From Escherichia coli O127:H6 str. E2348/69 (GTDB taxonomy: Bacteria > Pseudomonadota > Gammaproteobacteria > Enterobacterales > Enterobacteriaceae), in assembly GCF_000026545.1 (NCBI RefSeq), contig NC_011601.1: a stretch of DNA of 64,000 nt; one strand, 5' to 3'. The notes under the pieces are model-generated. The model was not told where the DNA came from and did not search any database. It saw only the letters and a list, made by a program, of their open reading frames with translations. Each line of letters begins with the position of its first letter. Positions within the stretch are counted from its first letter, which is position 1. This document shows positions 15,258 through 44,218 of this stretch, in pieces. The translations under genes and the position numbers were made by a program.

Positions 15258-15342
15258 GCCGAAGTGGCGAAATCGGTAGACGCAGTTGATTCAAAATCAA
15301 CCGTAGAAATACGTGCCGGTTCGAGTCCGGCCTTCGGCACCA
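15258..15342 (+). tRNA. leuX: tRNA-Leu (anticodon CAA)
   Basis: 85-nt sequence gccgaagtggcgaaatcggtagacgcagttgattCAAaatcaaccgtagaaatacgtgccggttcgagtccggccttcggcacca; long variable arm, CCA end encoded. Confidence 0.92.
15312..15342 (+). repeat. attL core: 31-bp 3' end of leuX, repeated exactly at 30373-30403
   Basis: cgtgccggttcgagtccggccttcggcacca occurs at both positions in direct orientation. Confidence 0.85.
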
Positions 15343-15859
15343 AGTCACTAAATTTCTTACAATACAATAAGTTAGGAAATAAAATCTATCTCTTTTGCCT
15401 GTAAGAAATGCTCTGTTATGTCCCTTGAAAAAGCCGCTGTGGTTGATAGTGGTAATTGGGATGTTAACTCATAGCGGCGTGTAGTTCCAAGCGTCAAACA
15501 CGTACTGACTCAACTTGAAAGCTATGACGTAGCCACCGTCTCTAAACAATCCCAAAAACTTTTAGTGAAGCGCATTTTAGCCCGATGCCCCCGTTCTGTC
15601 GCCGTCGCGAGACGCCGCAGGGGATAAACAGGTTTATGGTGGTCACGGTACTTGCAGACCATATGCAAGCTCTGCCAGCGGTTCGGCCTCGCTCCCCTTG
15701 GGTACATGGTCATCCTGATAAGCCTCACTAACTGACATAACTGTGATGTAGTCGCCAGAGGCTCCGCTTGTTGTCTTACCACCAACGGGGCTTATGACTT
15801 TTATTGTGTCAGTAAACGGCATATTATCAGTGATAGTTCAAACAGTTAGTAGGTAGAAA

Positions 15860-16408
15860 ATGAAGACCAAAAGAAAGAGCTTTGATCAATTCTTATGGCA
15901 TGATATTGATTTTGAAGATGATGCTGCAAAACAGGAAGAATACCTTGAATCTGCATTGCCACTTATTGGCCAGATTGTTATGTATTTCAATGCGCTAGAG
16001 AAAGAATTAGATAAAGTCATTTATGAAGGATTCAGCGATCGGTCAGATCAGTTAGGAATAATAATTGTGCATAACATGAATTATGCAGCAAAAGTCGAGT
16101 TATTTAGACGTCACTCCGAATTATTCCATTTGGGTGTTGGGCAGCATGTTGATATGTTTGAAGGTCTTATAAAGGATCTCAAGGAATGTGGACGGTTACG
16201 AAACATTACTGTACATGCTGACTGGGATAGCACTGATGTCGAAGGATATACATATTTAGGCATCAAAATAACTAACAATGGAATATCTCAGGAATATATC
16301 CAGTTTGACCTGGGGTCGTTGGAAAGTATCCTTCAATTGATTTTCAGTACGAGATATAAGTTGAGTGATTATTCAGACTTAAGGGGAGATATACTGGCTT
16401 CACATTAG
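15860..16408 (+). CDS. Hypothetical protein with HEPN-like R-N-x3-H motif (possible RNase/abortive-infection-type toxin)
   Basis: 182-aa ORF in AT-rich DNA; RLRNITVH motif at about residues 112-119 fits the HEPN Rx4-6H signature. Motif-level evidence only. Confidence 0.4.
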   Translation: MKTKRKSFDQFLWHDIDFEDDAAKQEEYLESALPLIGQIVMYFNALEKELDKVIYEGFSDRSDQLGIIIVHNMNYAAKVELFRRHSELFHLGVGQHVDMFEGLIKDLKECGRLRNITVHADWDSTDVEGYTYLGIKITNNGISQEYIQFDLGSLESILQLIFSTRYKLSDYSDLRGDILASH

Positions 16409-16477
16409 TGCCATTTTTTTACTAAATAGCTAACAAATACTATCGGTAAAAGACAACATCGCAATGGTAAAGCTGCC

Positions 16478-16948
16478 GTGAAGAAGACATTGATTGATTG
16501 GATCATAGAGACTGATAACTGGACAGGAATCGCAGCGTGGGCGGGTTTCGGTTTGTCAGTATTTCAGTTAGTAAAATCAAGAACATCGCTAAGACTTTAC
16601 CTCGGGTGTGATCAGCACGAGGACAGAATATACGTTTCGAACATAAGCGCACATGATGTAACGTTGAGTGTAGCCGGTGTCGTAACAGCCAGTGGACGCC
16701 TTAGAATGCTTTCCGACGAGTATTCGGATGAGAACATGATCACACCGATGTTACCAAGAAGGTTGAAAGCACGAGACGAAATGGTCTTGAACGTGCCCTT
16801 CATAAATAAGGCTCATCACAACAAAGTGCATCATCGTGGCGGGGTGTATATCAAAACATCTGACGGCAAGATGTTCAGTGATGTTTGTTGGATTAGACGC
16901 CAATGGTGGTGGTTACTGTCTGTAATACTGCGAGACACAAAGCGATAG
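16478..16948 (+). CDS. Hypothetical small membrane protein
   Basis: 156-aa ORF with an N-terminal hydrophobic helix (GIAAWAGFGLSVFQLV) and a Trp-rich hydrophobic C-terminus; AT-rich. Confidence 0.4.
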   Translation: MKKTLIDWIIETDNWTGIAAWAGFGLSVFQLVKSRTSLRLYLGCDQHEDRIYVSNISAHDVTLSVAGVVTASGRLRMLSDEYSDENMITPMLPRRLKARDEMVLNVPFINKAHHNKVHHRGGVYIKTSDGKMFSDVCWIRRQWWWLLSVILRDTKR

Positions 16949-17159
16949 GACAAGCGAGTCGCAGCTCATATGAGTGCCAACTGACATACGGCTCAGTTGG
17001 AATACTAGGATCGCGACTACGTGTTGTCTGCGAAAAACTGGGACTCAATAGATGGGTGTAGATTTAATTGATACGATCCTGTACGCGAATATTTCTCAGC
17101 ATAAATATCATCCCAGCGTCGGATTATGGTATTCAGAATGTGTGTGATGGTCTCTATCT

Positions 17160-17921
17160 TTATTCAGACCTTTTCTTCTTATCTTCCCATTCTTTTAAAG
17201 TGCTCTGATATCTTTCTTCATTTATTCTTTTTTCCTCGGTTCTGTCGCTTGAGTTGTAATTATCTGTTTTAATTTTCTTGGCTCCTTGGGATATCGGCCT
17301 CCAGTCCTCTCTAATTTTTTTCACTTGCTCGGCTATTTGTGTCATTGGACTCCTTGCTCCTAAATAGCTAACCCCCTCGAAAGAAGCCATATCATAAGAA
17401 TATTCATTGAGTTCTCTTTCTGTAGATCCGGGCTGTTTTGACCAACTGACACTAATAGAATAAATTTGATCCTTAATTTGCTCATACTTGCAGAGATTGC
17501 TGTTGAGAGAGTGTCCGTTTTTTAATACGCTGACCTTGCTAAATGGTACGCCTCTATTTTTTCTATGTTCTGCATTAACGAGAGGGGGATCAAATTCGAC
17601 CGCTATATCATAGGCTGGTGCATTTCCAGTATTAGCGATATTAATGTCAAAATAAAAAGCAGCCCAAGAGTTTGGTTCAAGAGTCACAACAACATGTGGT
17701 TGAACTGATGCGTCAACCATCCTTTTCGTTTCGTTTGCTAATAGCCTTGTTACTCTCCACAAGAAAAACGTAGCAACTGCTGTTAGCAGTGCTGCAAAAG
17801 CAGAGATCATTGTGCTTATAGTATCTATATGCTGTGTGATGAATTCGATCATTCTTCTCCCTCGAAATATAGTGCTTATTGTTATCAAAGGTAAGATAGC
17901 TCCCGGCTTGAAAAATTGCAC
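17160..17921 (-). CDS. Hypothetical membrane-anchored protein (probable true start at internal Met near 17852)
   Basis: 253-aa ORF; N-terminal TM helix (ISAFAALLTAVATFFLW) then a soluble domain and a charged K/E-rich C-terminus. Confidence 0.4.
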   Translation of the reverse strand: MQFFKPGAILPLITISTIFRGRRMIEFITQHIDTISTMISAFAALLTAVATFFLWRVTRLLANETKRMVDASVQPHVVVTLEPNSWAAFYFDINIANTGNAPAYDIAVEFDPPLVNAEHRKNRGVPFSKVSVLKNGHSLNSNLCKYEQIKDQIYSISVSWSKQPGSTERELNEYSYDMASFEGVSYLGARSPMTQIAEQVKKIREDWRPISQGAKKIKTDNYNSSDRTEEKRINEERYQSTLKEWEDKKKRSE

Positions 17922-18314
17922 GCTTATGGTTGCCCCTCCCTCGACGGTTAAGGCTTCAACTTCCCCCGTGCGCCTCTCCCAGCCGAAGGCTGGGCGGGCT
18001 GTATATCGATTTGCCTTCCTCTGTGGCGTTTATGACCCTGTTTCGCGTTCTTACCGTGAGGCTGTGGGTTAGGGTTACTCTTCTCTTTAAACGCTAAATC
18101 ACTCCTGAATCTCCACTGTTAAAGCACTTTGCGTTGATGCTTGGCGCTTCTCTTGGCTGTCGTTATTGTTTTGGCTTTGGTGTCATCAATCGTTCGATTC
18201 TTGCTACCTGTCTGAGTGATTACTATCTGGTATCATCAATTTAGGGTTTGACTAAATGCCACCACCAATGCAATGATGCTACCGTTTTGTGATACCAGAC
18301 GGGTGAGGTGAACC

Positions 18315-18884
18315 ATGAGGACTTTTATCTACTGCCGCGTTTCAACACGCGAGCAGGATACGCAGAATCAGGTGCTGGCTATTGAGCGTGCCGGGTATAA
18401 GGTGCCGGAGAGCAGGGTAATCAGCGAGGACATTTCCGGCAGCGTTCAGGCTATGCAGCGCCCTAAGTTCCGGGCGATGGTTGAGCACAAGCTGGAAGCG
18501 GGAGATCAGCTTGTCGTGCTGAAACTGGACAGGCTGGGGCGTGACAACATCGATGTGCAGCAGACCATCGACATGCTGTTAGAACGCGGCGTGAAGGTGG
18601 TGTCTCTTGACCTGCCAGCGCGTGATCTGACTTCATCTGAGGGCAAGCTAATCCGCCAGATGTTTGGAGCCTTTGCTGAGTTCGAGCGAAACCGTATCCG
18701 TGAGAGGACGCTGGACGGGCTGGAGAAGGCGAAAGCCAATGGCGTTAAGCTGGGACGCAAGGAAGCCACCGACACCACTCAAAAGGTGCAGGAGCTGCGG
18801 AGTGAGGGGCTGTCTCAATCGAAGGTAGCGAAGCATCTCGGCGTTAGCGTGAGCACCGTTAAACGTCACTGGAACAAGGGTTAG
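18315..18884 (+). CDS. Serine recombinase (resolvase/invertase family)
   Basis: 189 aa; catalytic-serine motif YCRVSTREQ at the N-terminus, LDRLGR motif, C-terminal HTH (SQSKVAKHLGVSVSTVKR). Confidence 0.85.
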   Translation: MRTFIYCRVSTREQDTQNQVLAIERAGYKVPESRVISEDISGSVQAMQRPKFRAMVEHKLEAGDQLVVLKLDRLGRDNIDVQQTIDMLLERGVKVVSLDLPARDLTSSEGKLIRQMFGAFAEFERNRIRERTLDGLEKAKANGVKLGRKEATDTTQKVQELRSEGLSQSKVAKHLGVSVSTVKRHWNKG

Positions 18885-19559
18885 GGGTGATGACCTACAA
18901 CCAAATGAGGTGCCAGCACTGGCCGTTACTGGGCTGTGGGAGATGGATGACCTACAGCTTTTGTATTTATTTCAGAGTGTTATGTTATGCGAAATCTCGT
19001 AATGCTATGATTTATAGTGTATTTTCGTATTACTTGCGGCTCTTGATGCGAAGAGATGGCGGGGCTTTAGCCGTGCCAGACGATGAGCATCAAGATCAGA
19101 TTGTGAATGTGATTCATCACTGAACAATTCGAGGGATGGGGCAGGGGAAGGGATCAAAGGCTGCGTTGTCCAATCACTAAGCTAGATTTGAAGCTGGTCA
19201 ACACGTTAGTAGTATCTTTAAAGTCGCATTTTAAATACATGTACAAAAAAGGGTTCTTCCCCTACATCCCCTTCTCCTAATCAGTGTTATCGCTTCACGC
19301 TCACCACTGGCTGCGCTTCTCGCTGTGCTCCAGCCCACTCGATCGCCTTTGGCTCATTCCCGGTCTTCGCCTGCTGTGATGCTCGGCCACTCTACGCAAC
19401 CGTGCTTGCCGTGGCATGCAACGCGGCGGGGATGTGTAGTGGAACGGTACTTTTTATCTATATTATTAATTTAATCAATCACATACTGTTATCGGTAGGT
19501 ATTCTTCAAAACATCTTCATTCATTTCTGTATCGTTCAATCATCTTTCTTGTTCGTTTC

Positions 19560-19700
19560 CTTTCAGGTCTTAGCCGTTGGTCATTGGTCTTACTGCCCGC
19601 TGTGCTACTGCCAGCTATGGCACGCCGTCACGGTCTACTGTCTGTCACCTGTCCTACTGCGTTCACTGTCTGCCGTCTGTCATCCTGTCGGATTCCATCC
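19560..19700. repeat. Pyrimidine-rich cluster of short iteron-like repeats (YTACTGYC / CTGTC) next to an AT-rich tract; candidate replication origin
   Basis: tcttactgcc, gctactgcc, tctactgtc, cctactgcg and cactgtctgcc within about 100 bp; AT-rich stretch at 19440-19560 immediately upstream. Confidence 0.3.
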
Positions 19701-20149
19701 GTTGACGTTCCGCGCTCGCTTGTTTCGGCTGCGCCGCGCTCGCTCTGCGTATCTAGCGATACTATATCACTATAGACACTTTCATAATTATATAATGATT
19801 ACAGTAACTTATGTTTTCTGTTTTAAAAGCTACTAATAAGGAGATATAGAGCATTACTTACCCGCTTTTGACCGACAAAAATCGCGTTGTTAAGTATTGC
19901 CAGCCCAGGCTCAATAAGGCTTAGCGAGGTGGTGGCTAAAAAATGAGCTAATGAAGGTATCTACTAAGGAGAAAGAATAACTCCCGAAGCGCGACAAACT
20001 CTCCGATTTTGAAAGTGACTATTAAGGCAGATAAAGACACTGACACTGTTGCTGACATGAAAACTTCTAAAAGGGCAGAGAGTCTGCCGAACCCGTACCG
20101 CTGACCCAACCTGAGCTAATACCTACCCCTATTTTCTGGAGATTTCACC

Positions 20150-21994
20150 ATGCCAACAAACCTACGCCGCCTGCTTGCGCAGGCTGCCGACGCTGACCCG
20201 CTCAATACTGCGGACGCAGATGTACAGCAAATGATCGCTGACGGGATTGTTATTCGACGTTCCAAGATATGCCCTGTAAAGCGTAAACCCGTTAAGGCGG
20301 CATACAACACAAAGACCGAAGAGTTTTATTACAATGCAGATGGCTCCGCGATGACCTTGCGGGAGTGGCGAACGCTGCACGGTGTTCAACCGAAGAAACA
20401 AAAACAGCGCTCTGACACTGGGTTGCGGCAAGTCATCCAGCCCGGCGACGCGATTCACTGCCGACGCGCTGAGATTGAGCAATGGCTTAATAAGAAGCCC
20501 GCTCGTTATGTTGACCCGCTGCCGCCAGATTTTCCCGGTGTTCGCGTAGACGATGCCGCATTGAAACCGCGCGAGCACGCCGTGCCGGAAGCGACAACCG
20601 GACAGAATGCTTTTCTCAAAGCCTGCCGCGAGTTCCTGATTTGCGATGAGAAGACCATGCGCCGTATCAGTCGGGGCATGAACCAAATGGAAGCTATGCG
20701 CAACGCAGATTTCAAACGCTACGGAGACTCAGGGGAGTTTCGTCAATTGTGGTGTGGAGAGTCGAAGCCTACCGAAGATAGATTTAATAGTTCTAATCAT
20801 CATTGTGACCCGAACGGCTTGGCTGCTTCGCCGTCTGTGCCGCCACTGAATACTGCACCGTATGAGTTCCGCCCGCTGGCTCGCTGTGACCGAAACGCAC
20901 GCGTTAGCCTGCTGCCACCTGATGGGCTGGAGTGGAGGCCGGGGCAGTTGTCTGTTGCTGATGCGATCTTTTCCCGTGGCAGTGATGTGCTTGCCGTACT
21001 GCCGACCGGGTATGGCAAAAGCGCCGCCTTCACTTATCCATTGATTTATGAGTCCCGCGCTGGCATTGGCCTGTCTGTAATCGTGGTTCCTACTAATACC
21101 CTTAAGCGTCAGATTCTCCGCCAGTTGCGGGAGGCTGGCATTCACGCTGTGGCCTTTGGCGATAAGCTACCGAGGCACCGCAACGCACAACAACTGGCGG
21201 GACTAGCAGCCGGGGCGTTCCGGGTTGCTGTTGTTTCGCCTGAACATCTGGTTCCGTCGAGTCAGGTTCTCGCGGCGCTGATGGCTTATGGCGTTGATCG
21301 TTTTATTATCGATGAGGCACACACGGTCAAAGACTGGGATTTCCGCCCAGCTTACGACGCAATGCAGCACACACTACAGAATGCTTTTCCCTCGGCTCAG
21401 CGCTGCGTGTTTACGGCTACTCTACTACGAGAAAATGAGCGCGGTTTAATGGAGGCGCTGGGATGCCGTGGCGATTACGTTACATTCCGTGCTGATGTTG
21501 CTCGCGAGAATATCCAGTTGATTCCGGTCAGGCAGTGCCGCCAGCGATACCGCGCGGCTGTTGGTCTGGTCGAGGCTCTGCCAGAGGAAGAGAAGACGCT
21601 CATTCTAGTCAATGACCTTAAGACGTTGCGGGCGTACCTGAAACTCTTCGGCGACCGGGCGCGCCCATATCACTCGAAGACGATGCACCTGAGCAACGAG
21701 GAACGCCACGCAAACGCTGAGTGGTTTGCCTCTGCGCCGGGCGCGATTCTGATTGCTACTAAAGCCTTCGGGCTGGGTGCTGATGTTCCTGATATCCGTA
21801 ACGTTGTCGTGACATACGTTCCCGATGACTTGCCTGATCTCGTTCAGATGATTGGACGAGCCGGGCGCGATGGGGAACCTGCCCGCGCTTTTCTGCTGTG
21901 GTCATCGCTGGCGCTGGATGTTGCTCCTGATGAGCTTGCTTACTTCTACCGCCCTGAAAACTGTAACTGGCAGTACATCGCTAAATACCTCTGA
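20150..21994 (+). CDS. RecQ-family superfamily-2 DNA helicase with a ~270-aa N-terminal domain of unknown function
   Basis: Helicase motifs LPTGYGKS (Walker A), IIDEAHTV (DEAH box) and GRAGRDG (RecQ-type motif VI). Confidence 0.7.
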   Translation: MPTNLRRLLAQAADADPLNTADADVQQMIADGIVIRRSKICPVKRKPVKAAYNTKTEEFYYNADGSAMTLREWRTLHGVQPKKQKQRSDTGLRQVIQPGDAIHCRRAEIEQWLNKKPARYVDPLPPDFPGVRVDDAALKPREHAVPEATTGQNAFLKACREFLICDEKTMRRISRGMNQMEAMRNADFKRYGDSGEFRQLWCGESKPTEDRFNSSNHHCDPNGLAASPSVPPLNTAPYEFRPLARCDRNARVSLLPPDGLEWRPGQLSVADAIFSRGSDVLAVLPTGYGKSAAFTYPLIYESRAGIGLSVIVVPTNTLKRQILRQLREAGIHAVAFGDKLPRHRNAQQLAGLAAGAFRVAVVSPEHLVPSSQVLAALMAYGVDRFIIDEAHTVKDWDFRPAYDAMQHTLQNAFPSAQRCVFTATLLRENERGLMEALGCRGDYVTFRADVARENIQLIPVRQCRQRYRAAVGLVEALPEEEKTLILVNDLKTLRAYLKLFGDRARPYHSKTMHLSNEERHANAEWFASAPGAILIATKAFGLGADVPDIRNVVVTYVPDDLPDLVQMIGRAGRDGEPARAFLLWSSLALDVAPDELAYFYRPENCNWQYIAKYL

Positions 21995-22031
21995 GTCGAA
22001 AGGCTCTCCCTGATTCTCTGGAGTTAATCAT

Positions 22032-22469
22032 ATGCCTGTTACCGAACATGCGCAGCGTCGTGCTGCGCGTGCGGATGCGCTCATCACCGCACAACTAGCC
22101 TTTGCCCTGAATGGGTACAACTGGGATGAACTGGCCGAACCTCATCGCAAGACCCTTAATCGTGAGGCCATCATTCGCGAGGTATCTACACCGCTGGAGC
22201 GATATTGCCTGCTGAATGATTGCGAGCCGTGGGAGTGTCTGGCCGCTGTACTGAACCGCATGAAAAGGCCGGATGGCTCGCGTCGCTGGAAAGCCGTCCG
22301 GTTGTCCGACCGGGTTTTCAATGGCCGGGTGCATCCAGTGCGCAAGACTCCTGATGAAGTTTACGCCGCCATTGCCCGCCGCTTGTTCCTGCCGAAGCCT
22401 GTGCATCAAGAAGTGATACAGCACATCCGTGCGCTTGGCTTGTTACCAGTTGGAGATAACCACCAATGA
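22032..22469 (+). CDS. Hypothetical protein
   Basis: 145-aa ORF, co-directional in a tightly packed operon. Confidence 0.4.
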   Translation: MPVTEHAQRRAARADALITAQLAFALNGYNWDELAEPHRKTLNREAIIREVSTPLERYCLLNDCEPWECLAAVLNRMKRPDGSRRWKAVRLSDRVFNGRVHPVRKTPDEVYAAIARRLFLPKPVHQEVIQHIRALGLLPVGDNHQ

Positions 22470-22675
22470 CGAAATCTGAATTTGAAAATGAAACATGGCG
22501 AATGAAGGGCTTGCTTCTTGGGGCGCTGATTCGCCGCCTTGAGGAAGATAAGGCTGGCGAGTCGCGCATGGTCGCAGCGGAGTTATCCAGTGCGGTCAAC
22601 TTCCTTAAGGCCAACGCCGTAGAAGCGCCGGACACATCATTCAACAACGTGTTCCCGGAGGATGACGAACAATGA
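22466..22675 (+). CDS. Hypothetical small protein
   Basis: 69-aa ORF with ATGA overlap with the upstream gene. Confidence 0.3.
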   Translation: MTKSEFENETWRMKGLLLGALIRRLEEDKAGESRMVAAELSSAVNFLKANAVEAPDTSFNNVFPEDDEQ

Positions 22676-22848
22676 CCCCTGAACAATTCAGACAATGGTT
22701 CGCCACGCTGCCACCGAACTATCAGAGCGCCGCACGCACCATGTACGACAACGCCCGCAAGTCGGGCATACATACCGCGTCAAGCCTTGCGCTGATTCAC
22801 ACGTTGGTTACTGACCAGATCAAATTTGATTCGGAGTTTAATTTATGA
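22672..22848 (+). CDS. Hypothetical small protein (58 aa)
   Basis: Not in the ORF track (below 60 aa); start and stop both overlap neighbours in ATGA fashion, suggesting translational coupling. Confidence 0.3.
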   Translation: MTPEQFRQWFATLPPNYQSAARTMYDNARKSGIHTASSLALIHTLVTDQIKFDSEFNL

Positions 22849-23408
22849 CTTTGAGTATTACCGATATCCAGCGCATTAACGCGCTGGCTCATAAGCACCT
22901 AAAGAACAATGAAGAGATTGCAGCGGAGACAGGTCATACCCTGACCGATATTGACGCTGTAATCCGTGGCGTCTATGTCGATGACTTGGCCGAACATTGG
23001 AAAGACGATGCTGATATTACTCTGGCGGAGTACAACGCCATCCGCAGCCGCTATAAGCCCGGCAAGTTGCACCGCGATACAGAGTTTATGATTGCCCGCG
23101 ATATGCTGATTCGCCCTGAGACTGTGCTGGCTATCGCCCATTCCCGCTTTAGCAACGTCCACACGCACCCAGTGCCGAAAGCCGTCAAAGCAAAGCCGGA
23201 GAAAGCGAAAGTAGTGCGCAAGTTAGTGCTTACTGATTTAGATGAAATCCACAAGTTAGAGCGCTTCGGTTGGCCTGCTGCGGAGATCGCCGGGAAGCTG
23301 GGCGTCCCTGTTGAGGTCGTCGCGCATGTGCAACGCTGCCTGAGAAATCGTTGGTCGTACCCGGATACTCTGGAGTCTGTTAACTCCAAATTCAGCGAGG
23401 CTGAATGA
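22845..23408 (+). CDS. Hypothetical protein with a possible C-terminal HTH
   Basis: 187-aa ORF; HTH-like segment GWPAAEIAGKLGVPVEVVAHVQRC. Confidence 0.4.
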   Translation: MTLSITDIQRINALAHKHLKNNEEIAAETGHTLTDIDAVIRGVYVDDLAEHWKDDADITLAEYNAIRSRYKPGKLHRDTEFMIARDMLIRPETVLAIAHSRFSNVHTHPVPKAVKAKPEKAKVVRKLVLTDLDEIHKLERFGWPAAEIAGKLGVPVEVVAHVQRCLRNRWSYPDTLESVNSKFSEAE

Positions 23409-23641
23409 TGGCAGAGAACGAACCGCTGCACCCCGCCGTTAACCCTGATCTCTACGTGAACCTTGACGAACAACGCGAAGGATACGCTCCGATTGAATCA
23501 CAGGGTTGGGATGTGCTGACGCAGAACCTGACCGGGAAAGGTCGAACTGACCCCAGCCAAACACTTAACCAGAATCCGAAACAACGCCCGCACGGCTCCG
23601 TTGGTGAGCGTCGTTGGCTTCGTAAACGTGGATTACTTTAA
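23405..23641 (+). CDS. Hypothetical small protein
   Basis: 78-aa ORF, overlapping start with the upstream gene. Confidence 0.3.
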   Translation: MMAENEPLHPAVNPDLYVNLDEQREGYAPIESQGWDVLTQNLTGKGRTDPSQTLNQNPKQRPHGSVGERRWLRKRGLL

Positions 23642-23653
23642 CGAGGAATTACC

Positions 23654-23893
23654 ATGAGCAAAACTATCGTATTGCTGCCGCCCCGCAAGAATACAGACTG
23701 GGCTGCACAATTAAAGCTGATTTCTGAATCGCTTGAGGTGAGTCAGGCAGACCTCGCCCACGCCTATCAGGTTGATCGTCGGGATATGGGTAAAGCGTAT
23801 CACGGTGTGCGCAAACTGCCGGAGCGTTGTGTGCCTGTTCATATGCTGTTGTTAGCGCAGGTACACGACTTTAGAGCATTATCAGGAGAATAA
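23654..23893 (+). CDS. Hypothetical small protein (possible HTH regulator)
   Basis: 79-aa ORF with an RBS-like aggaa upstream. Confidence 0.35.
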   Translation: MSKTIVLLPPRKNTDWAAQLKLISESLEVSQADLAHAYQVDRRDMGKAYHGVRKLPERCVPVHMLLLAQVHDFRALSGE

Positions 23894-23896
23894 TTT

Positions 23897-24577
23897 ATGT
23901 CTGACCAGAATGTTAATCCGTACCTTTCCGGTGCTGATGCTGCATCGCAGCAATCGCCATACATGGCTGCACCTGTTGGCGCTGACAATGGCGCATCCCG
24001 CTTTAGCTCTGTGCCTGCTGATGCTGATTTCCTCCGTACCCAGCCCGTTAACGGTAATGATGGCGGCCAATGGAATAATGGCAGTATCGCGAATCAGCAG
24101 GATCAGAACGCTGACAGCGCCGGGGCGCAGGTGGGCGATACTATCTCCCTGATGGATGGAACAGCTATTGAGTACACCGCCGAGCTGCAAGGATTGATGG
24201 GGCAGTTTCACCAGTCTGTCGAAAGCCAGCTAGGGCAGGGGACAGTTGACGCTATGTTGCAGTACGCTGGCACGCTCGACGCCGGGACGCAATCGACCCT
24301 TGAACGGATGGTTATGTCTGGCGACCCTGCGCAGATGCAGCGGGCGGTTCAGTATCTGCAAGAGCGTATGGCTGGCGGTTCCATTACCGGTTACGTCCCG
24401 AACGGCCAGACTGCCGCGCAACCTGTCGGAATGTCACATGCTGAGTTTATAGCAGCGTATGACCAGCTTTCGCAGTGGGCGCAGCAATCAGGGTATGGCC
24501 CCGGCCATCGCCAGTACGACGAACAATACCGTGCTCTGGTTGCGCAGCGCTCCGCTGGCAAACGTGCTGGTCGCTAA
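23897..24577 (+). CDS. Hypothetical acidic Q/A/G-rich protein (scaffolding-protein-like composition)
   Basis: 226-aa low-complexity protein immediately upstream of the capsid-like gene; compositional resemblance only. Confidence 0.35.
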   Translation: MSDQNVNPYLSGADAASQQSPYMAAPVGADNGASRFSSVPADADFLRTQPVNGNDGGQWNNGSIANQQDQNADSAGAQVGDTISLMDGTAIEYTAELQGLMGQFHQSVESQLGQGTVDAMLQYAGTLDAGTQSTLERMVMSGDPAQMQRAVQYLQERMAGGSITGYVPNGQTAAQPVGMSHAEFIAAYDQLSQWAQQSGYGPGHRQYDEQYRALVAQRSAGKRAGR

Positions 24578-24716
24578 CGCCCAACGGTGGAATGCGCCCT
24601 GCAAGACTGAGTGCGCACCAACCCGGTACTACCACACCAATCTAAGCGCATGAGTCCCCGCAAGCCGCATTCTGCGCGGCATCTGAAAGCCTGTTTTTAA
24701 TTAACCGAGGTTCGTA

Positions 24717-25130
24717 ATGAGTACCTGTAATTTCCATGCCGTGGTGCGTGTCGCTGACGTGCGCCCGGATTTCGCCTTGCCGCTGGGTAGATGCGACCAC
24801 ATTTACCCTGAGCGTGTGCAGCACGTTTTCAATCCAGACGAAGCGGTTTATATCGTTGCCCGGTCTGCCACATCCGGCACCCGCACATCTGGCGTTAGCC
24901 GTGGGCTTTCCCCTGTGCTGCCGCCGAAGATGGCCGAGCGGATGCGCGAACGTGAACGGCACGAGAAAAACCGAGTCAGACCCCGCAAGGTGATCACTGA
25001 GGCGATACGCGCTGACATTATCGATCGCTCTGCAAAAGGTCAGAAGAATCGTTACATTGCAAGCAAGGTTGGTGTGTCTGAAACCTCTGTGCGGAAGGTG
25101 TTGAACATGGCGCGTATGAGTGCGCACTAG
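24717..25130 (+). CDS. Hypothetical DNA-binding protein (C-terminal HTH)
   Basis: 137-aa ORF; HTH-like NRYIASKVGVSETSVRKVLN. Confidence 0.4.
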   Translation: MSTCNFHAVVRVADVRPDFALPLGRCDHIYPERVQHVFNPDEAVYIVARSATSGTRTSGVSRGLSPVLPPKMAERMRERERHEKNRVRPRKVITEAIRADIIDRSAKGQKNRYIASKVGVSETSVRKVLNMARMSAH

Positions 25131-25349
25131 TGCAAGGTAATACGTTCACCTTACTTCACGCGCACTAACCCCTGAGAACCGTGCCAGCTCTGGCCTCAAA
25201 ACGCCCATTTCGGGGCACCTCATTCCTCTTAATCGATACCGTTCTGAATCCTGCCTCGGCGGGAGGATTACGCACGCCCGCGCCATGACGATGGCCGGGC
25301 CTATCTCGTCAGTGAATCCGCTGGCACAACCTACGTAGGAGTTTTACAT

Positions 25350-26345
25350 ATGGCCGATAACATTTACTCGCCTGACCAGTTCCGCCCACATTATGGCGGG
25401 GTGGAATCTGACAATGATATTCACATCGAGGCTTATGACCGGGATGTCCAGACCCGTTTAGAGTCCAAATCCGTATTTCTGGCCGAGGGGCTGTCTACAT
25501 ACAGGCCGCTGAAAGCCAGCAACCAATATCGTGTTGATCGCCTGAGTGGTGATCTGGAGGTGAAGGGCAGAACCGCAGGGCAATCGCTGGAGCCTACCGC
25601 TGTTAAGTCGGATAAGCTGATTATCTCTGTGGATACGCTGAGTTATATCCGCATCCCGATTGACTATCAGGATGACTGGACAGCACCCACCTTTCGCTCA
25701 GAGCTGAGCCGCAATATCGGTACTGCTCACGCTAAATTCTACGACGAAGCGCACACCATCCAGCTAATCAAAGCGACTGACTTTGTACCGCCGCCGACGT
25801 TGCAACCAACGTTTAACCCGCTGACGGATAATGTTGTCTCGCTCGACCTGACAGCGGGGAGCGAAGAGGACGCCGCAAACGAATTGTCTCACGCCGTAAA
25901 AGCGGCTGCTAATCGCTTTCTCACTGAGAAAGATATTCCGGTGGCCGAGCTGGTACTGCTTATCGACCCGGCTTGGTTCAGCATCCTGATGGAACATAAG
26001 AAGCTGATGAACATCCGTTACAGCCGGGATAGTGGCAACGATTACGCATGGCGTCGAGTTGGCTATGTCGCTTGGGTACGAGTCATTGAGCTGAACAGTT
26101 ACCCGCAGGGAGCCATTACCGCGCATGAACTGGGCGCTGATTATAATGTGACCGCAGGGGAAGCGCTGACACGGGCGACGCTGTTCCGGCCTGCGTCTGT
26201 ACTTGTGACAGTCGAAGCGCAGAGCGTCATCAATCGCCAGTGGGATGAGGAACGCGAAATGACAATGGTGATGGACTCATATCGCCTGTTCAATGTTGGG
26301 CTGCGCCGCCCGGACTGCGTTATCAATTTCCGACAAGCTGCATAA
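25350..26345 (+). CDS. Hypothetical protein, possibly a phage-type structural (capsid-like) protein
   Basis: 331-aa ORF with strong RBS (aggag); size and position after a scaffold-like gene suggest a structural role; no motif-level proof. Confidence 0.35.
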   Translation: MADNIYSPDQFRPHYGGVESDNDIHIEAYDRDVQTRLESKSVFLAEGLSTYRPLKASNQYRVDRLSGDLEVKGRTAGQSLEPTAVKSDKLIISVDTLSYIRIPIDYQDDWTAPTFRSELSRNIGTAHAKFYDEAHTIQLIKATDFVPPPTLQPTFNPLTDNVVSLDLTAGSEEDAANELSHAVKAAANRFLTEKDIPVAELVLLIDPAWFSILMEHKKLMNIRYSRDSGNDYAWRRVGYVAWVRVIELNSYPQGAITAHELGADYNVTAGEALTRATLFRPASVLVTVEAQSVINRQWDEEREMTMVMDSYRLFNVGLRRPDCVINFRQAA

Positions 26346-26361
26346 CTGGAGGGGCTGAGTC

Positions 26362-26871
26362 ATGGTTAATGATGCTTACGCCCCTGAGCTGTTGCGATCC
26401 CTTTTCCTGTATGACCCGGTGACAGGTCGCCTGCACCATAAAGCTAGCCGATGCCGGGTTACGGCTGGCTCCTATGCTGACTCCACCCGGCGAGCTGATG
26501 GCTATCGTCAAGTTGCCCTGCGACTGGATGGCAAGCAGTACCAGCTAAAAGCCCATCGCGTAGCGTGGATTCTTGCGCATGGTGCTATTCCCCACGGTAT
26601 GCAGATCGATCACATCAACGGTACCCGTGACGATAACCGCTTATGCAATCTGCGATTGGTTACGCAGCGGGAAAACGACCAGAACCGACGCAAGGCAAGG
26701 GGGTATAGCTGGAATAAGGGCTGTAGCAAATGGGAGGCTTACATACGCGTTGGTGGTGTACTCCGTCACCTTGGCTTATTCACATCCGAAGCGGCAGCTC
26801 GTGCTGTGTACCTGAAAGCTAAAGCCAGATACCACCCCTCAACGCCTGACGATTTATTGCAGGCTGCCTAA
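26362..26871 (+). CDS. HNH endonuclease (phage-type, with AP2-like region)
   Basis: 169-aa ORF; HNH core IDHINGTRDDNRLCNLRLVTQRENDQN. Confidence 0.7.
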   Translation: MVNDAYAPELLRSLFLYDPVTGRLHHKASRCRVTAGSYADSTRRADGYRQVALRLDGKQYQLKAHRVAWILAHGAIPHGMQIDHINGTRDDNRLCNLRLVTQRENDQNRRKARGYSWNKGCSKWEAYIRVGGVLRHLGLFTSEAAARAVYLKAKARYHPSTPDDLLQAA

Positions 26872-26889
26872 CCCTCGGAGGTTCCATTA

Positions 26890-27315
26890 ATGGCTGATGA
26901 AAAGCCGATTAGGTCGCTGGCAGGTGATGACCCACGCCGCCAGCAGTACGCCGAACTGTTGGCGCAGGCTAGCCGCATGACTATTCCCCGGCTGCATCCG
27001 GGCGATGCTAACAGTGTGATGAGTCAGCTTGCAACGATGCTTGGCGCACCTGTCCCGATAGTCGGTGCTATGACTGAGCACGCCGCTGCATGGCGTGCCT
27101 GTCTGCTTGAGCAAGGACTTGGCGAGCTTCTGGATGGCTTGAGTAAACAGGTGCTGACCATCTTCTTTCTGCTCTGCTGGAGAGACAGCGCCTTGCGATT
27201 GGCTGGTAAGCAAAAGAAACGGCTTACAGCCGCCAGCGAGGGTTTGACCATTGAGCAATACCGGGCAATGCACCCGGCTTACAGAGAGGATAAAGAACAT
27301 GATAACCACGATTAA
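26890..27315 (+). CDS. Hypothetical protein
   Basis: 141-aa ORF in the operon. Confidence 0.35.
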   Translation: MADEKPIRSLAGDDPRRQQYAELLAQASRMTIPRLHPGDANSVMSQLATMLGAPVPIVGAMTEHAAAWRACLLEQGLGELLDGLSKQVLTIFFLLCWRDSALRLAGKQKKRLTAASEGLTIEQYRAMHPAYREDKEHDNHD

Positions 27316-27598
27316 ATTAAGGTGGCGGTACATCGAGACGCCGCCAATGACTGGCGCACTCGCTGACCTGAAACAGTGGGTAATGAATGCCGTAGAGCCT
27401 GAGCTTGAGGCTGAATTTCGTAAGCTGCTGGGGCAGATGCGTCGCAATGGTATCAGTGATGGGCGCGTAAATGCGGTGGCTGATGAGCTTTATGCTCTGG
27501 TATGCCAACGCCAGCGCGAAGAATACGAAGCCTGCAAGCGGGCTGCCTCTGACAATGGAGACTTTGAATCATGGTTACACGGACAGACCAGCTACTAA
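27299..27598 (+). CDS. Hypothetical small protein (start chosen at the ATG with GAGAGGA RBS)
   Basis: Track ORF 27251..27598; internal ATG at 27299 has a good Shine-Dalgarno sequence. Confidence 0.35.
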   Translation: MITTIKLRWRYIETPPMTGALADLKQWVMNAVEPELEAEFRKLLGQMRRNGISDGRVNAVADELYALVCQRQREEYEACKRAASDNGDFESWLHGQTSY

Positions 27599-27996
27599 GA
27601 AAAGCTATGAGGGGCTATCTGGAACACCTTGGCAACATGCCGCTGGCGGAACGGATTACAAATGCTGCTGTATTCGAAGATGTGTATCGCTTTTTGTTGA
27701 ATGGTTCCGGGCGGCTGGAGCTGCGCCGCGCTGACGTGGCTGCCGTCCGTGTCTTCCTTTGGAACTATCAATACCGCCGCTGTGCTGTGACAGGTAAGCC
27801 GCTGCGCCTTGCGTCTGCCGTTCTGGATCACTGCCACCGAACCGGGCGCGTGCGTGCTGTGGTGCATCGTTCTGCTAACGCTGCTGAGGGAGGCCGCTAC
27901 GTTGGGCGGACGTGTGGTGTTAGCGTTACGAATCTAAGGGCTATGATTGGCAGCTATCGCAAGCAATACACTGGTATTGGCATGTTATATCCATAA
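27571..27996 (+). CDS. Endonuclease VII-like (DHCH-type) nuclease
   Basis: 141-aa ORF with CAVTGKPL...LDHCHRTGRVR motif resembling the recombination endonuclease VII family signature. Confidence 0.5.
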   Translation: MVTRTDQLLRKAMRGYLEHLGNMPLAERITNAAVFEDVYRFLLNGSGRLELRRADVAAVRVFLWNYQYRRCAVTGKPLRLASAVLDHCHRTGRVRAVVHRSANAAEGGRYVGRTCGVSVTNLRAMIGSYRKQYTGIGMLYP

Positions 27997-28037
27997 CTGC
28001 GGGGTAATAAACCCCGCCGAAATAGTAGCGTAGCCAC

Positions 28038-28940
28038 TCAAACAGGAATGTTGTAGTAATGACAAATTGCATTAGTTAGTAGAGCTGGTGCAGCAGACGC
28101 TGCAATATTTAGCGTCCCCGCATATGCTTTACCAATCATATTTACAACCCACTTCCCAAGGCTATCACTGAAATTGTCCGGGGTAGTTGGGGCGGGTGAT
28201 TCTTGTATAGCTTGATGAAGGCTCTTAATATCTTCATCATTAGCGCCCCAATCCTTGAGCTGCTTTTCAAGCGAGTTGAAGTCTCCAGCGTTGACAGTAT
28301 TATTTTGTGAAATGTCCCCGTTACCAGAGCCAATAACGCCAGCATTGTTTACGTTGCCATGAATGTTGGTCACGTTATGGACAGTCATTGGCGCTACCTC
28401 TTTTTCTCTTAATGAAAACTGTAACCCTTCGCCTAAAATACCCTTTGACTCTAAGTCTAAAGACCAGTCGAGGATCTTATTCCTAACGGTAGTAATTACA
28501 TGTTCTAGTACACCAGCGCTTATAACCCATACCATCTCAGTCTTTTGTCCGATACTTTGAGCTAATGTATCAGCCATCCAATCCGGGAGAGGTAAAAAAG
28601 GGTTTTCTCCTTTATTGCTCATCTTTTTTATAGATGATATTGATTCTGTAATGTGAAACGTTGATACCATTGCATTTAATTCCGCGTCGTTGAAGTTGAC
28701 CACAAGCGGAACCCAGCTCTGATGTTGGGGACTATATGCTTTTAACTGCGATTGACCTTTCCTGTATTCAGGAACCGTATCAAAGCTGGGATAGCCATTT
28801 AATTCGAGCTGTATCCACTCGGTCAAATCGCTGAGGCCGAGCTTCACTGCAATCATTTTGGCCTTCATGAGTACAGATAAAATGTCGGAGTCGGGATCGC
28901 ACGCTAGTGCTTGAAGTTCAAGAACTGGTGAGTTAGCCAT
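28038..28940 (-). CDS. Hypothetical protein adjacent to the integrase (candidate abortive-infection/defense cargo)
   Basis: 300-aa ORF on the integrase strand, convergent with the main operon; N-terminal region loosely resembles Abi-type proteins, from memory only. Confidence 0.4.
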   Translation of the reverse strand: MANSPVLELQALACDPDSDILSVLMKAKMIAVKLGLSDLTEWIQLELNGYPSFDTVPEYRKGQSQLKAYSPQHQSWVPLVVNFNDAELNAMVSTFHITESISSIKKMSNKGENPFLPLPDWMADTLAQSIGQKTEMVWVISAGVLEHVITTVRNKILDWSLDLESKGILGEGLQFSLREKEVAPMTVHNVTNIHGNVNNAGVIGSGNGDISQNNTVNAGDFNSLEKQLKDWGANDEDIKSLHQAIQESPAPTTPDNFSDSLGKWVVNMIGKAYAGTLNIAASAAPALLTNAICHYYNIPV

Positions 28941-29027
28941 ATCAAGACCTTAGTATTGTTTTGATAAGGTATCTTACCCGCATCGAACCATGCAGTCTAA
29001 GGTTCGCAGGCCAAACTCACCCATGAG

Positions 29028-30239
29028 TTAGATGTTTATTCCTTCATGCTGGATGAGTTCGACATACTTACCGATCTCTATAGGGGAAGCTGCATTTTTC
29101 GAGTAAGTTTTGAAGCTCTCTGTACTCCCGCGCTCATGACCGACGAGCAGGGCAATACGATCTTCTGGCACTTGAGCACGGTCGAGCTGTTGCACAAAAG
29201 CATGGCGGAGTGAGTGAAACACTTTTCTCTCTGCGGCAGGCTCGCCAAGAGCTTTACGCTTTGCTCGCGTGAATTGCTGCGTATGCCACGTTGAGCGCTT
29301 CCCATCGGCCCGGTCTGTTATTGATGCGTGATAGAACAGAAAACCGCTATGTGTGGTCTTGAGCAATGACTTCACGAGAGGGATTATCTTGCTGTGTACA
29401 GGGACGATTCGCGCCGCGCTCTTAGTCTTCCCCTCGGTGATCTCAAAGCACAATATACCCTCGATAGTTTTAATACTGCTTTCACGTAGCGTACATATCT
29501 CATTGATCCGCATACCGCTGTATGCACCAATAGCCGTTACCGCCTTCATCTCGTCATCAAGCAAGGCATAGACCTTTGCCAGCTCTCCCGGTGCGAAGAC
29601 TTCATAGCTGACCTTGCTGCTTTTTGCTTCGAGCGCATGACCGCGCCAAGGATTGTCCTGTGGTGCATCGTGATAGCGATTGCGTGCCAGATCCCATATC
29701 TGCGCCAGTGCGCTTATATAGTTTTGGATAGTTTGGGGCGCTCGCTCAGTTTTGAGCTTATCTAACCAGCCTGTAACTATGGTTCGGTTAATATCCCGCA
29801 ACTGAACATCTTTCTTTTTCAAGTGGGTTAACAGCACCTCTACGGCTTTGTTGGTCTTGGATAACGTGGTTAGCTTTCGCTTCTCGCTGTATTGAAGCAG
29901 GTACAAATCACGCATTTTTAGCAAGGAAGGGCAAGCCTGAATCGATGCACCAAACGATGCGGGGGCTTCCTTGGCGTACACACTGACACGGCGTAGCTCA
30001 TCAATGATTTGGTCTACAGATGAGCCGCCTTGTGGCTTTAGCAGATTCCGTAAGCGAGTCCATTCCAGAGCAATAGCATCTCGAAACAATCGCGCTTGGC
30101 GTATGTCTCGTGTTCCTGTGCTTTTCATAAAGTAGCGCTTCCCTTGGAACAGGTGGCGCATATAGCTGGGAATAGCTATCCGCACGAGGTAATTCCCGCA
30201 GGGATCTAAAACTAGATAACGATCTCTCTTGAAACTCAT
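29028..30239 (-). CDS. Tyrosine-type site-specific integrase
   Basis: 403-aa ORF with C-terminal catalytic motifs (HSLRHAF, LLVGHERG, downstream Tyr); adjacent to the attR repeat. Confidence 0.9.
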   Translation of the reverse strand: MSFKRDRYLVLDPCGNYLVRIAIPSYMRHLFQGKRYFMKSTGTRDIRQARLFRDAIALEWTRLRNLLKPQGGSSVDQIIDELRRVSVYAKEAPASFGASIQACPSLLKMRDLYLLQYSEKRKLTTLSKTNKAVEVLLTHLKKKDVQLRDINRTIVTGWLDKLKTERAPQTIQNYISALAQIWDLARNRYHDAPQDNPWRGHALEAKSSKVSYEVFAPGELAKVYALLDDEMKAVTAIGAYSGMRINEICTLRESSIKTIEGILCFEITEGKTKSAARIVPVHSKIIPLVKSLLKTTHSGFLFYHASITDRADGKRSTWHTQQFTRAKRKALGEPAAERKVFHSLRHAFVQQLDRAQVPEDRIALLVGHERGSTESFKTYSKNAASPIEIGKYVELIQHEGINI

Positions 30240-30372
30240 ACAAACCCCGGTTATGTTGTCGGGGCTTTTTCATGGCTAAACAGTCTGTGAAATGTGCCGG
30301 GGTCATGAGCTTTAGTCTAGCTAGTTCAACAAGTTAACGATGATTGTTGAAGCAAGCTAAGTCGCTATAACC

Positions 30373-30403
30373 CGTGCCGGTTCGAGTCCGGCCTTCGGCA
30401 CCA
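30373..30403 (+). repeat. attR core: 31-bp direct repeat of the leuX 3' end
   Basis: Exact copy of 15312-15342. Confidence 0.85.
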
Positions 30404-30583: not shown

Positions 30584-30613
30584 CCTGATCTGACAGCTAT
30601 CTGCCAGATCAGG
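30584..30613 (-). terminator. Hairpin terminator downstream of hsdR
   Basis: Perfect 9-bp stem cctgatctg...cagatcagg with a 12-nt loop, about 15 bp past the hsdR stop. Confidence 0.55.
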
Positions 30614-30627
30614 TTCGGATTAATACA

Positions 30628-43237: not shown

Positions 43238-44218
43238 TCACCTTTCGCGCCAAAACTGCAAAATTGCTTCTACAAACCTGTCAGAAATAATCCCCCGACG
43301 GGCTGCCGCGCTGAAATGACTGCTTCGCAGTGCCGTCGTCCAGTTCTCCGGTGACCGGTACGCTGAACCGTAATATCCCGTGCTTAAATCGTCCGGGTCT
43401 TCATCAGGCGCGTTCGTCAGTCCTCTTTCACCTTGTTGCTGGAAGTCGACGAAAATAATATTGGCTAAAACATTATTTTGATAATTGCCATAAATAGCTT
43501 CATACGCATGAGGGAAATTTTCTTTCCAGTACCAGGTGGTATCGCCGCAAAACCACGGTGCGTCAGTAATATTATTAAGCTGAGAATGGTATTGTTTTAG
43601 ATCCCTACGAAAGGCTTCAACCATATGATTAAAGTGTTGAGGATGTGACGCGTAGTCACTGGTCATTAAGTCAAATTCGCCTTGCATCCAGCATACGCCG
43701 AGGAATTTGTTCTGCGGATTTTTTGCCAGTGCGGCTCGCGTTCTGCTCACTAAATCCTGGTATAGCGGAGTATCCGTTCCCCAACGACAAGCATCATGGC
43801 TGGCTCCGTGCCGTTCTGAATATGTCCCTTCGCTGCCCGCGGTAAAAGCCGATCCGCCACGGCAACACGGAACGATGAGAACCCCTGCATTATCAGGAAT
43901 AAAGGGCAGTAATTTCCGTGCTATATGCAGTGCCTGGCCAACGGTGCCGTACTGTGTTTGATGATTCGTTGCCAGAGGATGGTGATAACCCTGCATATCC
44001 TGAACATCGTGTGGGCAGTGAGTCAGTGGAATAATGTCGTTAAAGTGACATGACGGGCCTCCGGGATGCGTATGCGCAAATCTCGCTAATTGTTTAATTC
44101 TGGGATGAGGCGCATCTTCCTTGTCCGGTAATGGTAGTCCTTCGCCATACGCCATGGCATTAGATTGACCAGCAACGGTAAGAACATAGTAATAATCGGG
44201 CGATATTATCGCGTTCAT
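43238..44218 (-). CDS. nanS: N-acetyl-9-O-acetylneuraminate esterase
   Basis: 326-aa ORF; SGNH-hydrolase-like N-terminus (VLTVAGQSNAMAYG); position downstream of nanM and nanC matches the E. coli nanCMS operon. Confidence 0.8.
   Translation of the reverse strand: MNAIISPDYYYVLTVAGQSNAMAYGEGLPLPDKEDAPHPRIKQLARFAHTHPGGPSCHFNDIIPLTHCPHDVQDMQGYHHPLATNHQTQYGTVGQALHIARKLLPFIPDNAGVLIVPCCRGGSAFTAGSEGTYSERHGASHDACRWGTDTPLYQDLVSRTRAALAKNPQNKFLGVCWMQGEFDLMTSDYASHPQHFNHMVEAFRRDLKQYHSQLNNITDAPWFCGDTTWYWKENFPHAYEAIYGNYQNNVLANIIFVDFQQQGERGLTNAPDEDPDDLSTGYYGSAYRSPENWTTALRSSHFSAAARRGIISDRFVEAILQFWRER

Follow-up and report, generated by a model that had tools for sequence, protein, structure and literature searches.

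A RecQ-like helicase with an orphan N-terminal region, encoded at a fixed core position in a rare integrative element of Enterobacteriaceae

We analysed a 64,000-nucleotide stretch of the genome of Escherichia coli O127:H6 str. E2348/69 (NCBI RefSeq assembly GCF_000026545.1, contig NC_011601.1; hereafter the window), focusing on a helicase gene at positions 20150-21994 of its plus strand. E2348/69 is the standard strain of enteropathogenic E. coli (EPEC) in the laboratory, and the window matches its chromosome at 100% identity. The encoded protein joins a RecQ-like superfamily 2 (SF2) motor to an N-terminal region of about 260 residues that is orphan, modular, mosaic, and constrained. Its gene is not a common prophage gene; it belongs, at a fixed position, to the core of a rare mobile island that is inserted here at leuX. 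The island looks like a satellite-type element, so far undescribed, with a relationship to virulent T7-like phages, and we tentatively propose that the helicase serves the replication or mobilisation of this element.

Results

A RecQ-like motor without the C-terminal domains of RecQ

The helicase gene starts with an ATG codon, with GGAG 8 nt upstream as the ribosome-binding site, and its 614-residue product corresponds to RefSeq WP_001142869.1, named "DEAD/DEAH box helicase." Around 70 full-length homologues were found, some of which NCBI and other sources name "ATP-dependent DNA helicase RecQ." The RefSeq entry, these homologues, and the purifying selection acting on every region of the protein together establish the open reading frame (ORF) as a genuine gene that did not arise by chance; in pairwise comparisons, the ratio of nonsynonymous to synonymous substitution rates (dN/dS) across the motor core was 0.08-0.12.

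Pfam placed DEAD at residues 264-428 and Helicase_C at 478-575, leaving residues 1-260 without any match. The motifs that had led to the original prediction of a RecQ-family helicase, LPTGYGKS (284-291), DEAH (388-391), and GRAGRDG (569-575), are all present in the C-terminal half. As in RecQ proteins, the SF2 core combines motif 0 (xRPGQ; here RPGQ at 263-266), a DExH box, and an aromatic-rich loop (DEAHTVKDWDFRPAY, 388-402). The closest solved structures are RecQ, WRN, and BLM, each matching residues 261-588 only. The best of these is bacterial RecQ (E. coli RecQ, PDB 1OYW; Cronobacter RecQ, 4TMU), with an E value of 3e-31 over residues 261-585, and it shares with our protein the SF2 motor, motif 0, Walker A and B (DEAH), the aromatic-rich loop, and motif VI. 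On the model of RecQ, helicase activity with 3'->5' polarity would be expected of the motor.

Resemblance to bacterial RecQ ends with the motor, over which the two are ~31% identical. No Pfam match to the Zn-binding (PF16124), winged-helix/RQC (PF09382), or HRDC domains was found in the helicase, and the 39 residues that follow motif VI hold one Cys, as against the four of the RecQ Zn-binding subdomain. Unlike RecQ, which is a housekeeping protein, it carries a 260-residue N-terminal extension and is encoded by a mobile element. Its scores against the curated models TIGR00614 recQ_fam (140.6 bits, cut-off 219.8) and TIGR01389 recQ (153.5 bits, cut-off 640) are likewise below threshold. Because the protein lacks the RecQ C-terminal domains and falls short of these cut-offs, the term "RecQ-family" used in the original prediction is too strong; judged by sequence, "RecQ-like core" is the accurate label.

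An orphan, modular N-terminal region

The original prediction had also described an unrecognised N-terminal domain of about 270 residues. Its boundary lies nearer to residue 260, and the region has stayed unmatched throughout our searches. Scans with NCBIfam and PHROGs, as with Pfam, of the whole helicase and of residues 1-270 left the N-terminus unassigned. When residues 1-261 were compared exhaustively with 1.84 billion representatives by phmmer, only the protein's own family and its fragments came back, together with one spurious low-complexity repeat protein (P0106). A profile of the N-terminal family recovered only that family from 5.8 billion proteins and reached a best E value of 0.37 (S4e) against PDB sequences. 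Permissive Pfam scans of every allele type of the first N-terminal module (NTD1; Table 1) gave no recurring match, and no phage record contains the N-terminal region. We considered an S4/alphaL motif for NTD1 and ruled it out: Pfam S4 is absent from every allele even at E<=10, and no fold match supports it. Checked against the two findings that the original prediction had named as speaking against it, the region matches no standard RecQ accessory domain, and the gene is not a common prophage gene.

Structure prediction, another check named in the original prediction, yielded a model of moderate confidence. AlphaFold2 (AF2) gave a mean predicted local distance difference test (pLDDT) score of 57.5 for the full-length helicase and 63.2 for the N-terminus alone. 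In the latter model, residues ~21-76 (a helix, a beta-hairpin, short strands, and a helix) are predicted at pLDDT 70-89, and a helical bundle spanning residues 147-201 reaches 88.

Selection has preserved this region. The dN/dS of NTD1 is 0.13-0.31 in most pairs and that of the second module, NTD2, is 0.07-0.18, as constrained as the motor; the N-terminus is moreover conserved in homologues that share only ~30% identity there. On both counts, it is clearly functional. Every allele is basic over residues 31-110. The allele types of NTD1 are old (dS > 1), and their reassortment is independent of the motor: in one homologue (P0002), NTD1 is 65% identical and RecA1 98%, whereas in two others (P0008 and L067) NTD1 is 95-99% identical and the core 74%. 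Specificity modules reassort in this way.

NTD2 also occurs on its own. In a divergent clade of elements, a free-standing paralogue of 83-85 residues lies directly upstream of the helicase (L002, 9741-9992; L004, 5364-5621) and shares 31-39% identity with NTD2 of the helicase (residues ~120-204; E values down to 4e-15). It could be a regulator or a partner of the helicase. A further candidate for an independent NTD2 protein, P0120, was rejected as a remnant lying in a vacant L002-type site. Three Klebsiella aerogenes loci (L072-L074) carry, at the chromosomal position where the L002-type element inserts, a solitary 88-aa ORF homologous to helicase residues ~110-200, apparently the remnant of a lost element.

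A core gene of a rare mobile island

The helicase resides in an element of ~15.06 kb between attachment-site (att) repeats, a member of a family of 13-15 kb elements. From attL, the genes run in the order variable cargo, serine recombinase, a 1.26-kb non-coding region, helicase, eight small genes, and capsid; HNH endonuclease, two unknown genes, endonuclease VII, variable cargo, and integrase follow (Table 1). The helicase opens a translationally packed operon beside the largest non-coding region of the element. Its position is identical in every element examined, in all clades, and a search for non-orthologous displacement found no element with another gene in its place. Among the conserved genes of the element, it is the sole recognisable replication-type enzyme.

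The element is uncommon: of 5426 complete E. coli genomes, 59 (~1%) carry it. Full-length helicase matches were found in four of 100,044 species representatives, belonging to Enterobacter, Kosakonia, Kluyvera, and Trabulsiella. A deeply diverged clade (L002, L004, and L077) occupies other integration sites and encodes helicases 42-49% and capsid proteins 55-58% identical to those of the E2348/69 element. Elsewhere, a copy at tRNA-Gly in E. coli UTME-7 (L070) has a different integrase, a truncated capsid gene, and no HNH gene, and its helicase is intact.

The element has two cargo hotspots, one near attL (15343-18314) and one between endonuclease VII and the integrase (27997-29027). The cargo differs among copies (including loci L067-L071 and L075) and comprises AbiTii, TIR-domain proteins, an Eco29kI restriction-modification (RM) system, and a Dcm methyltransferase pair. 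Directly beyond attR, at ~30600-43500, restriction genes are densely clustered: Type I hsdRSM, DUF4942, and McrBC occur there together with an HNH gene and an endonuclease that restricts in a phosphorothioate-dependent manner. Their presence makes the leuX locus a defence island.

Table 1. Features of the helicase and of the element that encodes it (positions in the window; aa, residues of the helicase)
Feature	Coordinates	Strand	Remarks
Helicase gene	20150-21994	+	614 aa; opens tightly packed rightward operon
NTD1, aa 1-110	20150-20479	+	Two helices, beta-hairpin, helix (aa ~21-76), then basic low-confidence arm (GIGRK..R.D.G.R..QPGD)
NTD2, aa 111-203	20480-20758	+	Helical module: helices 147-163, 167-191, 195-201
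Linker, aa 204-260	20759-20929	+	Pro-rich, weakly conserved
RecQ-like SF2 motor, aa 261-590	20930-21919	+	Motifs 0, I, II, aromatic loop, III, and VI intact; ~31% identity with bacterial RecQ
Short C-terminal tail, aa 591-614	21920-21994	+	Single Cys in aa 576-614 (after motif VI)
attL	15312-15342	+	3' end of tRNA-Leu(CAA) leuX; 31-bp direct repeat with attR
Serine recombinase (resolvase/invertase)	18315-18884	+	Found in all elements, as different alleles
Non-coding region between resolvase and helicase	18885-20149	.	1.26 kb; largest non-coding stretch of the element
Eight conserved small genes	22032-25130	+	Overlapping or nearly abutting; no assigned function
69-aa protein, weakly T7-type small-terminase-like	22466-22675	+	PF11123, E 3e-4, below cut-off; two genes downstream of helicase
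226-aa conserved protein	23897-24577	+	Homologue called "Scaffolding protein" by one source; upstream of capsid gene
Helix-turn-helix (HTH) protein	24717-25130	+	
Major capsid protein	25350-26345	+	phrog_267, E 3e-64
HNH endonuclease	26362-26871	+	Followed by two unknown genes
Endonuclease VII homologue	27571-27996	+	End of block 26362-27996
AbiTii cargo gene	28038-28940	-	Variable hotspot; other copies have a Dcm methyltransferase pair, a TIR pair, or other genes
Tyrosine integrase	29028-30239	-	Adjoins attR
attR	30373-30403	+	Second copy of the 31-bp repeat

A satellite-like element related to T7-like phages

Over 98% of its length, the capsid protein of the element shares 56% identity with that of Bonnellvirus (Autographiviridae), a genus of virulent ~42-kb phages of Escherichia, Enterobacter, Kosakonia, Cronobacter, and Pantoea. 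The host ranges of the element and of Bonnellvirus-type phages overlap. Two products of the helicase operon were also compared with these phages. The 69-aa protein has 13 identities in 30 positions with the Bonnellvirus small terminase and may be a satellite-encoded small terminase; the 226-aa protein has no detectable similarity to the Bonnellvirus scaffold. We ruled out that the helicase itself was borrowed from a helper phage, since element and phage have only the capsid and, weakly, endonuclease VII in common and the N-terminal region is in no phage record.

As is expected of satellites in general, the element is small and integrative and has att sites, an integrase, a phage-derived morphogenesis gene, and an incomplete virion set: Pfam, PHROG, and NCBIfam scans found no portal, large terminase, or tail genes among its genes. 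The same databases revealed none of the marker genes of P4-like elements, PICI, cfPICI, PLE, or PICMI. With these known satellites, it shares its small size and integrative habit, its att sites and integrase, its defence-cargo hotspots, and its phage-derived morphogenesis genes. It differs from them in that no alpA, primase/rep, psu/sid/delta, portal, protease, or large terminase was detected, in that its capsid gene comes from virulent T7-like podophages, and in the orientation of its integrase, which converges with the main operon instead of diverging from it. The element-to-phage genome size ratio (15.06/42.3, ~0.36) lies near what we take to be the P4/P2 ratio and would presumably fit a smaller capsid. 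Element-sized contigs were considered as evidence of excision and discarded, as the contig ends fall within the att repeat. In the searchable literature, we found no account of the helicase protein, of the E2348/69 leuX element, or of any satellite that exploits T7-like phages.

The DNA upstream of the helicase

The original prediction had linked the helicase to an iteron region. We examined the non-coding DNA in front of it. Three copies of a weak, degenerate repeat lie at 19588-19687, and Rfam found no family in 18885-20149. A hidden gene (ORF 19402-19836) was ruled out: the sequence is non-coding, with dN/dS of 1.0-1.7 and frame-breaking indels. Two other elements, L006 and L008, have collinear upstream DNA. 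Part of it is replaced in L007 and nearly all of it in L009 and L067, and L002 and L004 lack it; in L069, the same upstream DNA precedes a different NTD1 and a different motor. A k-mer association confined to ten related loci picked out a few type-A-specific k-mers ~1 kb upstream, with no type-B counterpart.

On both strands of 18800-22100, a region covering the DNA upstream of the helicase operon and the start of the operon itself, we found no sigma70-like promoters where 3.0 +/- 1.9 were expected. This hints that transcription of the operon may depend on an outside factor, and it fits expression triggered by one.

The non-coding DNA has other features. Two blocks are conserved between the deep clades, 17907-17944 (38 bp, 89% identity) and 15621-15641 (21 bp, 100% identity), where proteins are only 40-57% identical. 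Neither adjoins the helicase, and both are candidate functional sites (a promoter, a recombinase or packaging site, or an RNA start). A 17-nt inverted repeat (19772-19788 and 20006-20022; 88% complementary) brackets a stretch of ~250 bp immediately upstream of the helicase, with the DNA-invertase-family recombinase 0.9 kb away; no inverted copy of 19772-20022, as an invertible switch would produce, was present among ~50 E. coli copies.

Discussion

A proposed role in the life cycle of the element

The original prediction had offered two roles, the replication initiator or helicase of an element and an anti-phage helicase. Genomic context favours a core life-cycle role over one as defence cargo, in that the helicase keeps its position while defence genes swap. 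We accordingly lean toward the helicase being the replication or mobilisation helicase of the element, a reading to which we give a little less than even confidence. It is favoured by the fixed core position of the gene, by its co-inheritance with the capsid module across deep divergence, by its standing as the only replication-type enzyme present, and by its constrained, modular N-terminus. Our confidence stops there because the element has no identifiable origin and RecQ-like initiators have no known precedent.

Under this proposal, a small phage-satellite-like integrative element would use a dedicated DNA helicase, its probable helpers being virulent T7-like Bonnellvirus phages. The C-terminal 330 residues would form an active RecQ-type ATPase and helicase motor translocating 3'->5'. 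The N-terminal 260 residues, with basic NTD1, helical NTD2, and a flexible linker, would form a targeting module that steers the motor to element DNA, or to a replication protein of the helper or the host. After infection by a helper, the excised 15-kb element would be unwound and copied, or otherwise prepared for packaging, and its DNA would then enter capsids built of the element-encoded capsid protein.

A more specific version, possible in our view and quite doubtful, casts the helicase as the replication-licensing protein of an undescribed family of capsid-encoding satellites that parasitise Bonnellvirus in Enterobacteriaceae. Its N-terminus would be a new fold recognising the element origin or a component of the helper replisome or RNA polymerase (RNAP), specificity for a helper or an origin would lie with the NTD1 types, and regulation of the helicase with the free-standing NTD2 paralogue.

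The Rep proteins of known satellites (P4 alpha, SaPI/PICI Pri-Rep, and PLE RepA) offer what we take to be a functional analogy: a specificity domain coupled to DNA opening, a location near a non-coding region, and interchangeable specificity types. P4 alpha combines a primase, an SF3 helicase, and an origin-binding domain. Our helicase differs from all of these in having an SF2 RecQ-like motor rather than an SF3 or RepA_N protein, no primase, no detected iterons, and no observed co-variation between allele and origin. To our knowledge, herpesvirus UL9 is the only well-known replication initiator in which an SF2 helicase is joined to a site-specific DNA-binding domain. That domain is C-terminal in UL9, and no sequence relationship with our protein is expected.

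Several observations weigh against a life-cycle role so conceived. We know of no SF2 RecQ-like helicase that initiates replication of a bacterial or phage replicon, and the element encodes no primase. No origin of replication was found in it: Tandem Repeats Finder (TRF) detected no tandem repeats across the element (15343-30403), and the proximal 600 bp upstream do not co-vary with NTD1 or motor alleles. Together with the replacement of the upstream DNA in one element after another, these results lend no support to the iteron link or to an iteron-type origin at this place. Comparison of the N-terminal model with known folds gave no match and no recognisable DNA-binding fold, at the moderate confidence of that model (mean pLDDT 63). 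The capsid and, weakly, endonuclease VII remain the sole genes common to the element and a Bonnellvirus-type phage genome, and exact k-mer counting in phage Lidtsur produced no consensus for a helper-phage RNAP promoter. Satellite behaviour, and Bonnellvirus as the likely helper, are themselves points that we infer.

Alternative roles

The helicase could instead be an anti-phage or interference protein in the manner of DpdF or PsyrT/RqlH, with an N-terminus that senses a phage component and a motor that disrupts phage DNA replication or transcription. Its best PADLOC match is indeed PDLC02858, labelled DpdF, which covers residues 112-614 (20483-21991 in the window) end to end at an E value of 2e-277, and other PADLOC profiles for DpdF and PsyrT match the core at 1e-40 to 1e-54. 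The profile PDLC02858 is, in effect, one of the helicase's own family: it begins at residue 112 because some homologues have a Met at 111 (…EMWLNKK…), and N-truncated gene calls appear to have been its source. With the curated DpdF model, NF041063, the score is 124.4 bits where 550 is the cut-off, and although DpdF, of the Dpd 7-deazaguanine DNA-modification and restriction system, also has a RecQ-like motor, no dpd genes (dpdA/B/C or dpdD-K) lie near the helicase. The PADLOC label is therefore no evidence of a Dpd system. PsyrT/RqlH, the RecQ-like helicase toxin of PsyrTA, is similar in being a RecQ-like motor on mobile DNA (PADLOC PsyrT, E 1e-39 over residues 261-584); it differs in its unrelated N-terminus, in the PsyrA-type partner that PADLOC did not find adjacent to our gene, and in that our helicase is core and not cargo. 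More broadly, annotation and Pfam, PHROG, PADLOC, and NCBIfam scans of the conserved neighbours found no Dpd, PsyrA, or other partner. The setting does lend itself to a defence role, since the element sits within and carries defence genes (AbiTii, TIR, and RM), with Type I RM, McrBC, and phosphorothioate-dependent restriction adjoining, since satellites often interfere with their helpers, and since mosaic NTD1 alleles could mirror recognition of varying phage targets. Set against this, the helicase holds its core position as defence cargo is exchanged at other sites, and dN/dS is low throughout, with no sign of an arms race. We think a defence role unlikely.

We judge equally unlikely that the helicase is a recombination or DNA-processing enzyme which, rather than initiating at an origin, works with endonuclease VII and the serine recombinase on concatemers or branched DNA to allow packaging by a T7-type terminase. 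Substrates of RecQ helicases include forks, D-loops, and Holliday junctions, and T7-like packaging requires concatemers and debranching (T7 genes 3, 18, and 19). The endonuclease VII homologue and the resolvase are conserved alongside the helicase in all clades, and the missing iterons and origin co-variation fit a structure-specific rather than a sequence-specific enzyme. Yet such a role leaves the 260-residue, family-specific, modular N-terminus and its allele types unexplained, and the protein lacks the winged-helix and HRDC domains that give RecQ its structure-specific DNA binding. The gene could also lack any role specific to the element, as an ordinary RecQ paralogue of the chromosome or one in decay, which would agree with the RecQ names given to some homologues; its occurrence only inside this element family and the strong purifying selection on it come near to refuting that idea, and the sub-threshold RecQ scores and missing C-terminal domains add to the case, so that we hold it highly improbable.

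Implications

The helicase unites a motor of a known kind with an orphan region, new to us, that would serve in targeting, and its setting is of more interest than the original prediction supposed. If the life-cycle role is correct, an SF2 RecQ-like motor would have been recruited, through a new targeting domain, as the replication or mobilisation helicase of a mobile element. The element itself would be of a satellite type that, in E. coli and its relatives, exploits virulent T7-like phages with a capsid protein of its own, a combination outside the four or five satellite families described. Candidate helper phages are kept in culture collections, which opens these proposals to direct tests. 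For annotation, the DpdF label of PDLC02858 means that automated defence calling may misassign elements of this family and report false Dpd components. The element moves defence genes (AbiTii, TIR, and RM systems) between genera at >90% identity, which bears on resistance to phage therapy in Enterobacteriaceae.

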